A DNA stretch of 64,000 nt. Source: an uncultured bacterium (GTDB taxonomy: Bacteria > Patescibacteriota > Minisyncoccia > Phycocordibacterales > CAIZLB01). The notes below the pieces were generated by a model. That model did no database searches. It had not been told where the DNA came from and was given only the letters and a program-made list of their open reading frames with translations. Made by a program: the position numbers and the translations under genes. Below, piece by piece: positions 2,095 to 48,583 of this stretch. The DNA lies in contig CAIZVZ010000006.1 in the NCBI GenBank assembly GCA_903936565.1, forward strand, positions 29,436 to 93,435, in the 5' to 3' direction. Position 1 is the stretch's first letter, and each line of letters begins with the position of its first letter.

Positions 2095-2440
2095 AAGCCC
2101 CCTTTCGGAGACCTCTTTGTTAAATTGTTGCGGAGTCTGGAATTGCACCAGATCTACAAGGTTATGCTTACTACTACAGCTTTCACTGTTTACTTAAAAG
2201 TAATTTGGAGTCTGGACTATACCTTCATCTGCCCTAGACCGAAGTCCAAAACAGAGTCCACCGTCTAGTCTCTACACCTTCAGGTCTTTAAAAAAGACAA
2301 GCTTGGCTCGGTATTGCCACGTATTTTACCACAGAGGTTTCACCGAATTTGATGGATGTTTTCCATAGATCATCACTGTTCTATGAGCCCTAGTTGAGCC
2401 TCGCGTGCGACTGTAACACTCCCCCGCAATTTCAAATTTC
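2095..2440 (-). ncRNA. Candidate structured ncRNA with RNase P RNA-like motifs, roughly 340 nt; unconfirmed
   Basis: No ORF of 60 aa or more on either strand across 2009-2528. A minus-strand TTGATT-17-TATAGT promoter-like element sits near 2470-2500. Minus-strand motifs: GGCUCAACUAGGGCUCAUAG (compare RNase P CR-I GGGCUCCAUAGGGCA), GGUGAAACCUCUGUGGUAAAAUACGUGG (compare GGUGAAAGGGUGCGGUAAGAGCGCACC), and AGAUGAAGGUAUAGUCCAGAC (compare the E. coli 3-prime region AGAUGAAUGACUGUCCACGAC). The 5-prime UUGCGGGG can pair with 3-prime CUCCGCAA (P1-like). The transcript ends in a CUCC-GAAA-GGGG hairpin plus a U-run (2098-2118). Confidence 0.3.
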
Positions 2441-32848: not shown

Positions 32849-32917
32849 TCCCTGTATTATAGGGGTAAATGAAAAATTTTGAAATATTCAAAATATACGA
32901 TATACTGCCCCTTGTAC

Positions 32918-33005
32918 GGAGGATTGGATGAGTGGCTTAAATCAACAGTTTACTAAACTGTCGGCTTGGAAACAGGCCCGTGAGTTCGAATCTCACATCC
33001 TCCGC
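32918..33005 (+). tRNA. Type-II (Ser-like: long variable arm, discriminator G) tRNA whose canonical 7-nt anticodon loop TTACTAA reads anticodon ACU
   Basis: GGAGGAT...ACAGT-TTACTAA-ACTGT, variable arm GGCTTG-GAAA-CAGGCC, GTGAG-TTCGAAT-CTCAC, ATCCTCC-G. Its loop differs from tRNA-Ser(GCU) TTGCTAA by G34 to A. Confidence 0.6.
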
Positions 33006-33145
33006 AAAATAATGGGCAAAGCCCATATATTTTGCGTTAGTCCTTAGCGAAGCTAAGGGCTCCGCAACGAGCGAAGCTCGTATAATTTTCGAGAGTGCAG
33101 AATAAGGAGCGATAGCGACTAATATTTTGCCTCCGCAAAACCACA

Positions 33146-44645: not shown

Positions 44646-44714
44646 TCTTTTACAAAATGCAAATTAAGATTTTACTTGTGCACCCCCCCAATCGAAGAAA
44701 AAGTATTATTTCTG

Positions 44715-44787
44715 TGCGAGCACTAGGATTCGAACCTAGGACCGGTCGTGTATAAGACGACTGCTCTACCAACTGAGCTATGCTCGC
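44715..44787 (-). tRNA. tRNA with UAU anticodon (would decode AUA, Ile)
   Basis: GCGAGCATAGCTCAGTTGGTAGAGCA-GTCGT-CTTATAC-ACGAC-CGGTC-CTAGGTTCGAATCCTAG-TGCTCGC-A; U33 and A37 are in place. Confidence 0.7.
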
Positions 44788-47159: not shown

Positions 47160-47600
47160 TGTGTCCCTTAGGTGGGTATTTAGGCCGGAGCGCCAGATCC
47201 GTACGGAATTAAATCCCTACAAATTCCAAAGTCTAAATACGACGATCCAACTATAACCGAGATTGCCCAGCCGTGCACACTTGCTTTTGACGCCGTCAGC
47301 CAAGTTAACTCGATCATAGAATGACACAATTTGTCATTTGGACCGATCAAAAAAGAAGGGTTATGTGTGATCCGGCCAAGTGCCAGACACCTAACACATA
47401 TTGTCACCAGAGGAACAGGTGACAGACGCAACTAGTTCCAAAACTAGGGTAACTCGGTGCAAGTGCCACCGTAACAAATTAACCAGCGTTTAAGGTCGAC
47501 GAAGACCACACTTCTAGCCCGACTCACGACAAGGTGAGCGGGCTATCCTTTTGGCTTTTTTTCTTGTACTCACGTACACCACCCTACCACCCTACTTCTG
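47160..47600 (+). ncRNA. Unassigned candidate structured ncRNA (about 440 nt, GC about 50 percent) ending in a strong intrinsic terminator
   Basis: ORF-free GC-rich block between divergent ftsH and smpB. Hairpins include atgaca-caatt-tgtcat and tgtcacc-agaggaaca-ggtgaca. Terminal hairpin agcccgactcac-gacaag-gtgagcgggct followed by ttttggcttttttt (47550-47600). No RNase P, SRP or tmRNA consensus recognised. Confidence 0.3.
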
Positions 47601-47647
47601 CGCAATTCCATAATTGTAAAAAAAGATATATACTAAGAAAAATAAAG

Positions 47648-48103
47648 ATGACCATAAAGACCCTCGTAAAAAATCAAAAAGTTTTCTTTAACTATGAAAT
47701 AACGGATAAATATAACGCCGGTATTGAGCTTTTTGGGTACGAAGTAAAAGCAATTCAAAAAGGTCTCGGTAATATGGAAGGGTCGTATATCGTCATAAGA
47801 GGTGGGGAGGCGTTTTTAATAGGGCTAGATCTTCCACCATATCAGCAAAAAAACACTCCCACAGAATACGATTCAAAGAGAAATAGAAGGTTATTATTAA
47901 ACAAAAAAGAGCTCATAGAGTTGGCAGAAAAGGAGAAAGAGAAAGGCTTGACTATCGTGCCAATAGCGTTGTACAATAACGGTCGCAGAATCAAGCTAGA
48001 GCTTGGTATTGCAAAGGGAAAGAAGAAATTTGATAAGCGTCAGAATATCAAAAAAAGAGAGAGTGATAAGGAAATCAACCGCGCACTCAAAGGCGGAAGG
48101 TAA
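47648..48103 (+). CDS. smpB: SsrA-binding protein SmpB
   Basis: IAQNKKAFFNYEI-like N-terminus (KNQKVFFNYEITDKYNAGIELFGYEVKAIQ), LPPYQQ, C-terminal basic tail GKKKFDKRQ. Internal Met start chosen. Confidence 0.85.
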   Translation: MTIKTLVKNQKVFFNYEITDKYNAGIELFGYEVKAIQKGLGNMEGSYIVIRGGEAFLIGLDLPPYQQKNTPTEYDSKRNRRLLLNKKELIELAEKEKEKGLTIVPIALYNNGRRIKLELGIAKGKKKFDKRQNIKKRESDKEINRALKGGR

Positions 48104-48173: not shown

Positions 48174-48568
48174 GGGGATGACATGCTTTGACACATGACT
48201 GGATTTTTTATGTGCGTAACCGAGTGCCCGAGAATCTCGTTAAACTTCCGGAACCCTTAGATGCAAAAGCCCAAAAAGCAGTCGCTTCTCCATTCTTTGG
48301 AGTAAACGACTTTGCATTTGCAACAGCTAGAGCCTAGCTCGCTATTGCAACGTTCTTACCTACTCTTTTTGCAAGTAGGATAAGGGCGCAATAATTGCAA
48401 AATAGATTTACAGAAATCTTAGACTGTAAATTAAAACAAATAAGATCGACGACGTTGTGTTTTGATAATTTTATAGCACCGCCGTTTAAAAACAAAAAAA
48501 ATCATCTACGCTACGTAGACTCATAAAGAAACATCGTGTGCACGCGGGTTCAATTCCCGCCATCTCCA
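48174..48568 (+). ncRNA. ssrA: tmRNA (ssrA)
   Basis: 5-prime GGGGATG pairs with 3-prime CATCTCC, including a G3-U70 wobble pair. T-arm GCGGGTTCAATTCCCGC, discriminator A. Internal candidate tag frame ending at UAG 48335-48337 (...NDFAFATARA). Located immediately downstream of smpB. Confidence 0.8.
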
Positions 48569-48583
48569 CATCAATAAAAATAG

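Follow-up and report, generated by a model that had tools for sequence, protein, structure and literature searches.

Does a bacterium carry a working serine tRNA with the anticodon ACU, and, if it does, which codons does that tRNA read? Why anticodons that begin with A are so scarce has long been a puzzle. According to a 2021 review and a 2026 experimental preprint, split-box ANN tRNAs, among them tRNA-Ser(ACU), are "universally missing", from which both conclude that selection against them has been strong and ancient, and the natural bacterial exceptions that have A34 all serve family boxes (Arg ACG, Leu AAG and Thr AGU). ACU is absent from the serine anticodons recorded for any organism in published reviews, tRNA-Ser(ACU) does not figure in a 2026 survey of the tRNA genes of Patescibacteria (PMC13011429), and our own literature search, with incomplete coverage, returned no description of it in bacteria, Patescibacteria (CPR) or phages. 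The tRNA is apparently undescribed, though it is surely present in automated annotations. The gene considered here is an ordinary tRNA-Ser body with an anticodon of a class thought to be excluded. It lies in a window of 64,000 nucleotides, which is the whole stretch of DNA that we analysed, and it had been picked out there from the sequence alone. That original prediction offered a pseudogene, a sequencing error or a genuinely unusual decoder as explanations, and our results favour the last of the three.

An intact tRNA-Ser gene with the anticodon ACU

The gene predicted to begin at position 32918 is real. ARAGORN calls a tRNA-Ser with anticodon ACT at 32918-33005 (plus strand) in the 64,000-nt window, and the Rfam tRNA model (RF00005) aligns over its full length, model positions 1-71 of 71, to tRNA positions 1-73 at 32918-33004. 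The alignment scores 52.6 bits against a gathering score of 29 (E-value 1.8e-10), with no pair flagged as non-canonical. A whole-window scan at the Rfam gathering score did not list the gene. A local rerun with looser filters gave the 52.6 bits, and we attribute the miss to loss at the speed filter, having rejected a weak gene as its cause. The original prediction would have been refuted by a covariance-model score that classed the gene as a pseudogene; with 52.6 bits, beside 54.3 bits for the neighbouring tRNA-Ser(GCU), that classification was not borne out.

The serine features listed in the prediction (a long variable arm, a 3-bp D-stem and G73) can all be read in the sequence and in the Infernal alignment. 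The acceptor stem is GGAGGAU/AUCCUCC, with G73 as discriminator; the D-stem consists of G10-C25, A11-U24 and U12-A23, plus G13/A22; the anticodon stem is ACAGU/ACUGU; the variable arm, GGCUUG-GAAA-CAGGCC, has 6 bp and a GAAA cap; and the T-arm is GUGAG-UUCGAAU-CUCAC. CCA is not encoded. In its cloverleaf score and its paired long variable arm the gene is a class II elongator tRNA-Ser. Bacterial SerRS, as known from E. coli, uses an identity set that does not depend on the anticodon, namely the long arm, G73, G1-C72, G2-C71 and A3-U70. G73 and these three base pairs are all present in the window gene.

The sequence, the Infernal alignment and ARAGORN agree on the anticodon, A34-C35-U36 at 32952-32954 (plus strand), in the 7-nt loop UUACUAA at 32950-32956 (U32 U33 A34 C35 U36 A37 A38); ARAGORN places its start at gene position 35. 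A34 is base 32952, and position 32953, to which the original prediction had assigned it, is C35. The anticodon is complementary to the serine codon AGU, and U33 and the purine A37 are both present. An alternative register, which would make the tRNA a CUA or UUA suppressor, would place A at position 33 and break the geometry of the 7-nt loop; we rejected it because Infernal aligns the loop cleanly as UUACUAA. The tRNA is also not a tRNA-Sec, as its anticodon is not UCA and its 7/5 acceptor/T geometry is standard.

The flanks of the gene carry candidate transcription signals. A promoter-like TTGAAA-16 nt-TATACT at 32879-32906 (plus strand; 10/12 matches in a consensus scan) ends 11 nt before tRNA position 1. 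Sites with at least 9/12 matches occur at the promoter position in 15% of 110 family members, compared to 4% in shuffled upstream sequence, and the site is suggestive only. Downstream, a terminator-like hairpin, ATGGGC-AAA-GCCCAT followed by ATATTTTG, begins 7 nt past the tRNA at 33012-33035 (plus strand); it is a consensus match from a terminator scan.

Reproducibility and genomic setting

To fetch the same locus from elsewhere, we used a neighbouring gene for a 146-aa low-molecular-weight (LMW) phosphatase as an anchor, a protein found in 38 collection blocks. The tRNA is identical, A34 included, in three metagenome assemblies (ENA ERZ27313454, JGI 3300045671 and ENA ERZ18659942), and identical as well in a GTDB species-representative MAG from a lake metagenome bin (CAJBHC010000033.1, CAJBHC01); the loci that carry the identical gene are L001, L002, L003 and L033. 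Because the sequence is the same in four independent assemblies, a sequencing or assembly error is refuted as an explanation of A34.

From its gene content and genome matches, the window is chromosomal DNA of a freshwater bacterium of the ultra-small Patescibacteria (CPR). Its G+C content is approximately 37%, and it encodes LigA, GatA, RecG, FtsH, a CopA-type ATPase, PilB/PilC, SmpB, uracil-DNA glycosylase and MscL. The genes around tRNA-Ser(ACU) are of the usual chromosomal kind (uracil-DNA glycosylase, LMW phosphatase, MscL, CopA, RecG and FtsH), and neither an integrase nor a tRNA array was seen near it in the window.

The ARAGORN calls in the window number five and include a tRNA-Ser(GCU) with the loop UUGCUAA at 28423-28511 on the minus strand (28422-28511 by ARAGORN; 54.3 bits with Rfam), 4.4 kb upstream of tRNA-Ser(ACU) and on the opposite strand. 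A tRNA-Ile(UAU) at 44714-44787 (minus strand; Rfam, 73.6 bits) lies directly downstream of ftsH. The UAU anticodon is rare in bacteria, where the usual reader of AUA is a lysidine-modified CAU tRNA. In 12 of 95 CPR loci a tRNA-Ile(UAU) accompanies the two serine tRNAs, Ser(GCU) and Ser(ACU), and the ATA codon is frequent in the window (27.6 per 1000), which suggests that AUA may be read without TilS in these bacteria. A tRNA-Met (1933-2008) and a tRNA-Asp (1781-1855) lie beside a group I intron at 2193-2406 (minus strand; Rfam, 56.7 bits) located just upstream of them. Excising this intron in silico with many combinations of boundaries yielded no host tRNA that ARAGORN recognized. The window also contains a 398-nt tmRNA at 48174-48571 (plus strand; Rfam, 118 bits), which ARAGORN did not detect, immediately downstream of smpB at 47534-48103 (plus strand). 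The 56 long ORFs of the window end in TAA (32), TAG (21) or TGA (3), so that the share of TGA is unusually low, given a G+C content of 37% and apparent use of the standard code.

Conservation in Patescibacteria

We scanned one genome per GTDB species (596 Gb) with a pattern for class II tRNAs that have the loop YUACUAA (A-R-N-GG-N3-AA-N9-YTACTAA-N22-36-GTTCRAATC). The pattern matches once in the window and in none of 100 shuffles, and it has at least 120 matches in the species-representative genomes, compared to an estimated 8 or so expected by chance in 596 Gb. Of the 120 matches listed, 118 contain a full-length tRNA-Ser(ACU) by ARAGORN. By their lineage labels, which are as deposited and some of which are probably loose, 93 of these 120 listed matches come from CPR records (Saccharibacteria, Paceibacterota/Parcubacteria, Nomurabacteria, Magasanikbacteria, Zambryskibacteria, Taylorbacteria, Pacebacteria, Minisyncoccia and "Patescibacteria group"); the remaining listed records are 13 bacteria with no lineage label and 14 with other labels. 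Some of these 14 look like mis-binned CPR DNA (L063, for example, matches the Magasanikbacteria type), others match phage-array tRNAs, and some have mismatched acceptor stems. Ser(ACU)-like tRNAs with the loop CUACUAA were also observed in Polynucleobacter and a betaproteobacterial MAG (L043, L046 and L053). The acceptor stems of the Polynucleobacter copies L043 and L053 are mismatched, which suggests that these two may be hybrid genes from integration events in isolate genomes outside CPR.

Conservation in more than 100 species is accompanied by covariation. We aligned 103 distinct CPR-type tRNA-Ser(ACU) sequences and counted pairs against the cloverleaf. Standard pairs fill 99.0% of stem cells, compared to 79.8% in shuffled alignments, and 17 of the 25 pairs show double-sided (compensatory) changes. 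The covariation score is 0.548, compared to 0.166 for shuffles and at most 0.098 for slid partners; none of 500 shuffles reached the observed paired fraction or the observed covariation score. All helices contribute, the variable arm included, in which all five tested pairs are compensatory and 95.7% of cells are paired. None of the 103 sequences departs from G1-C72, G2-C71 or A3-U70, and at least 90% of them retain G73. Structural covariation together with retention of the SerRS identity set is the signature of a working tRNA, and on this sequence evidence tRNA-Ser(ACU) is under selection as a tRNA.

Pairing with tRNA-Ser(GCU)

The window's arrangement of two AGY-box serine tRNAs is common. 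Among the matches listed, 74 of the 118 other genomes with tRNA-Ser(ACU) have tRNA-Ser(GCU) in the same 8-kb locus. Counting the window, both genes occur in at least 75 loci, separated by 12-5951 nt (median, 227 nt); GCU lies upstream of ACU in 72 of the 75 pair loci among those listed. The two genes form separate families: mean identity is 81% within the ACU family and 79% within the CPR GCU family, compared to 64.5% between them. The original prediction had described the ACU loop as a single G34-to-A change from that of the gene at 28423. The two loops do differ solely at position 34, but the window's own ACU and GCU genes are only 64% identical overall, which indicates that the pair is old and did not arise by a recent change of G to A, and rules out a recent duplication of the neighbouring GCU gene. 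What the prediction overlooked is that there are two separately conserved families, and that the ACU gene is conserved across Patescibacteria and occurs in phage tRNA arrays as well.

Since the genome scan fixed the sequence of the loop, the conservation of A34 rests on a smaller sample, a free-loop scan in which the D-arm and the anticodon stem were fixed and the seven loop bases were left free. This pattern is not specific to the family and also caught ordinary Ser(GCU) and Ser(UGA) tRNAs of other bacteria and phages. In metagenomes, the loops among the matches listed were UUGCUAA (63), CUUGAAA (29) and UUACUAA (28). Twenty of the 25 ACU matches recovered at full length, among those listed, have a separate Ser(GCU) in their locus. 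Where a copy of the ACU-type body lies beside another Ser(GCU), the listed matches have A34 in 20 of 20 cases, and all 59 listed copies with G34 are the sole AGY-type Ser tRNA of their locus.

The CPR ACU tRNA thus has the body seen in the lone GCU tRNA of other bacteria, with A34 whenever a second GCU gene is present. Like canonical tRNA-Ser(GCU), for example E. coli serV, it is a class II tRNA with G73, G1-C72, G2-C71, A3-U70 and a UU-N-CUAA loop, and it shares D-arm and anticodon-stem sequence with the GCU tRNAs of the 59 single-copy loci of other bacteria among the matches listed. The mean best identity of these 59 to the ACU family is 84%, a figure biased by the pattern. It differs from canonical tRNA-Ser(GCU) in having A34, not G34, and in existing beside a second, divergent GCU gene (64.5%). 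From these comparisons, which the scan pattern biases, we infer that the CPR ACU gene may descend from an ancestral GCU gene.

Occurrence in phage tRNA arrays

In IMG/VR, the free-loop pattern found the loop UUACUAA in at least 13 matches. tRNA-Ser(ACU) is present in six IMG/VR loci (L247, L262, L310, L320, L334 and L364), in arrays of 13-27 tRNAs, and in all of these except L247 we recorded it as the only AGY-box tRNA, together with Arg(ACG). The combination of Ser(ACU) and Arg(ACG) in phage arrays suggests that the tRNA is used in deaminase-bearing cells. The phage tRNAs resemble the window gene in their anticodon loop, in a similar body and in that CCA is not encoded; they differ from it in lying on viral contigs, in arrays of 13-27 tRNAs, without a GCU partner. 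Further A-starting anticodons were observed in such arrays: between them, L286, L301, L330 and the six loci above contain Ile(AAU), Tyr(AUA), Leu(AAG), Thr(AGU) and Ser(ACU). Phages are described in published surveys as being without such A-starting anticodons.

Codon reading

We estimate a probability of roughly 0.65 that tRNA-Ser(ACU) is a functional, vertically inherited chromosomal gene of Patescibacteria that encodes a second AGY-box serine isoacceptor, with A34 unmodified and reading AGU. In this proposal, the tRNA would be transcribed alone, from the promoter-like site to the terminator-like hairpin, and would receive its CCA post-transcriptionally. Seryl-tRNA synthetase would charge it with serine by way of the long variable arm, G73, G1-C72, G2-C71 and A3-U70. 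A34 would stay adenosine and pair with U3 of the codon in Watson-Crick fashion, restricting the tRNA to AGU, and the linked tRNA-Ser(GCU) would cover AGC plus, by wobble, AGU. Of the two decoding scenarios in the original prediction, AGU-only reading is judged the likelier, and reading of AGU, AGC and AGA through inosine is judged unlikely.

Codon usage is compatible with this assignment in one respect: AGU is the commoner codon, with 285 occurrences compared to 101 of AGC in 56 long window ORFs (74% of AGY), and with 2584 compared to 1286 (67%) across 108 ACU-bearing loci. AGU is not specially favoured, as AAU and AUU make up 74% and 77% of their U/C pairs in the window. The ACU gene also persists in loci of approximately 50% G+C in which AGC is at least as frequent as AGU, which weakens adaptation to AT bias as a sufficient explanation. 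A G34 tRNA already reads AGU by wobble, which leaves a dedicated A34 decoder with no obvious benefit.

The best functional analogue is an engineered M. jannaschii tRNA studied in E. coli by Schmitt et al. (2024, PMC11066159), which has the same ACU anticodon, is unmodified and reads AGU. E. coli TadA did not edit it and no inosine was found; it discriminated between AGU and AGC by at least 95:5, and its reading of AGC and AGA was below detection (PMC11066159). It did read AGG weakly but detectably (PMC11066159), so that some Arg-to-Ser error is possible. The engineered tRNA is an artificial construct with another body, and it carries tyrosine and has to compete with the full E. coli set (PMC11066159), whereas the CPR tRNA is natural, conserved and of the Ser type. 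A natural precedent in a reduced genome is tRNA-Thr(AGU) of Mycoplasma capricolum, which has an encoded A34 that is not converted to inosine (Andachi et al. 1987, as cited in the 2021 review and the 2026 experimental preprint). That tRNA serves a four-fold family box, in which reading all four codons is harmless, whereas the CPR tRNA serves a box split between Ser and Arg, in which reading of AGA or AGG would be mistranslation and AGA specifies invariant arginines of the window's FtsH and RecG. Eukaryotic tRNA-Ser(AGA), read as IGA, is likewise a serine tRNA with an encoded A34, but it belongs to the UCN family box and undergoes obligatory deamination by ADAT2/3.

Alternative explanations

That split-box A34 has been published as universally absent favours reading the gene as a pseudogene, or as a GCU gene altered by an error of assembly or sequencing. 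We consider this extremely improbable. The stems are intact, the Rfam score is normal, the gene is conserved and reproducible in four independent assemblies, at least 118 orthologues show covariation, and the window has an intact GCU gene besides; the normal covariance score and the compensatory covariation across 103 distinct sequences together refute a pseudogene, and the identity of the gene in three metagenome assemblies and one GTDB representative MAG disposes of the sequencing error that the original prediction had allowed for. Recent delivery of a non-native, auxiliary tRNA by a phage or an integrative element has circumstantial evidence in its favour: Ser(ACU) occurs in the large tRNA arrays of IMG/VR contigs; several non-CPR matches (Polynucleobacter, Planctomycetes and Flavobacteriales) have mismatched acceptor stems or resemble phage-array tRNAs; a gene for a Bro-N protein lies 1.5 kb from tRNA-Ser(ACU); and 11 nt of the tRNA 3' region recur 131 nt downstream. 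This last feature is an exact direct repeat, CCTCCGCAAAA, which takes in the 3' end of the tRNA and 4 further nt, at 32999-33009 and 33130-33140 of the window, with three small GNRA-type hairpins between the two copies, and it may be the scar of an earlier integration at the tRNA, or chance. We nevertheless rejected a phage origin of the window copy, which we regard as very unlikely. Its neighbours are housekeeping genes with no integrase or tRNA array among them, the window contains no second copy of the tRNA 3' half, the GCU-ACU linkage is common to at least 75 loci (the window and 74 species-representative genomes), and the closest of 50,697 GenBank phage records is 75% identical.

The alternatives that accept a native, functional tRNA concern what it does. 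It may be charged with serine and serve mainly outside decoding, as a serine donor for cell wall or lipid, or it may act as a regulatory RNA or an integration target. Staphylococci provide a model for the donor role in their non-proteinogenic tRNA-Gly. The anticodon is one that is avoided in normal translation, and the GCU tRNA already covers AGY. The gene has served for integration in at least one strain, if the joining of its 3' 38 nt to unrelated DNA is taken as such: in L004 (1-460; JGI 3300045649), from the same species, only these 38 nt remain, from TGGAAACAGG on, matching window positions 32968-33004, and the preceding 415 nt match neither the window nor any fetched locus. Either an element integrated into the tRNA gene has its junction here, or the contig end is chimeric. 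A non-decoding role is quite unlikely in our estimate, because a function independent of decoding would not demand that the loop be retained exactly, and it is exact (U33, A37 and ACU) in 20 of 20 pair loci among the free-loop matches listed. The T-stem and acceptor stem also look standard, and translation-supporting phage arrays carry Ser(ACU) as their sole AGY-box tRNA. Conversion of A34 to inosine, or another modification of it, in a functional tRNA would yield an ICU anticodon that reads AGU, AGC and in part AGA. Genomically encoded A34 in bacteria normally becomes I34, as in tRNA-Arg(ACG) and, in Streptococcus and Oenococcus, tRNA-Leu(AAG); the loop UUACUAA differs at two positions from that of Arg(ACG), CUACGAA; and a 2026 preprint reports conversion to I34 of an engineered split-box A34 tRNA (Phe) in E. 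coli. The TadA substrates tRNA-Arg(ACG) and tRNA-Leu(AAG) of Lactobacillales share with the CPR tRNA an encoded A34, U33 and A37-A38, but they have G36 and I34 and serve family boxes, whereas the CPR tRNA has U36 and serves a split box (PMC13249217, PMC8007984). The behaviour of the engineered ACU tRNA in E. coli, which had no inosine and preferred AGU over AGC by at least 95:5, also speaks against inosine (PMC11066159).

The position of the loop in question, UUACUAA, is occupied by U36 where a TadA substrate would have G36, and to our knowledge all known TadA substrates share G36. An ICU anticodon would moreover duplicate the linked GCU tRNA and misplace serine at AGA. AGA is the commonest arginine codon, both in the window (324 of 653 Arg codons) and across the 108 ACU-bearing loci, and in the window it encodes invariant catalytic arginines of FtsH (motif RPGRFDR) and RecG (motif DEQHRFG), which makes inosine unlikely at position 34. 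We also searched the window and 0.87 Mb of scattered CPR loci, approximately one genome-equivalent and a sample of low power, for TadA, using tblastn with E. coli and S. aureus TadA queries and a scan for the motif H/CAE...PCxxC. No TadA-like ORF was found in this sample; the search yielded just a cytidine-deaminase-like ORF (L067) and a dCMP-deaminase-like ORF (L136). The same small sample contained no tRNA-Arg(ACG) that we could see, and tRNA-Arg(GCG) was present in two CPR genomes (L050, 542-614, minus strand; L087, 5649-5721, plus strand). In other phyla, replacement of ACG by GCG accompanies the absence of TadA (PMC8007984). The missing TadA-like ORF and the presence of Arg(GCG) in scattered CPR DNA are at most a hint that the deaminase is lacking.

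Implications

The structural conservation of tRNA-Ser(ACU) in more than 100 species, and its presence in phage arrays, make it a natural counter-example to the description of this tRNA as "universally missing". Annotation pipelines and codon-adaptation models should not take such CPR genes for pseudogenes or errors. If A34 is unmodified, a split-box A34 decoder would be tolerable over very long times, and these bacteria would offer a test ground for what forbids A34, whether cross-reaction with the deaminase, misreading of NNG and NNA codons or the kinetics of the ribosome. We would give even odds to the broader proposal that an ancient, vertically inherited pair in Patescibacteria, Ser(GCU) and Ser(ACU), splits AGY between two Watson-Crick decoders, with the split-box A34 unmodified in an anticodon that current reviews describe as missing from cells and phages alike. 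If this is true, the pair would be a natural system for asking why A34 is avoided elsewhere and, together with tRNA-Ile(UAU) and, in some members, Arg(GCG), it may be part of a phylum-wide strategy in which extra unmodified tRNAs replace the modification enzymes TilS and TadA.
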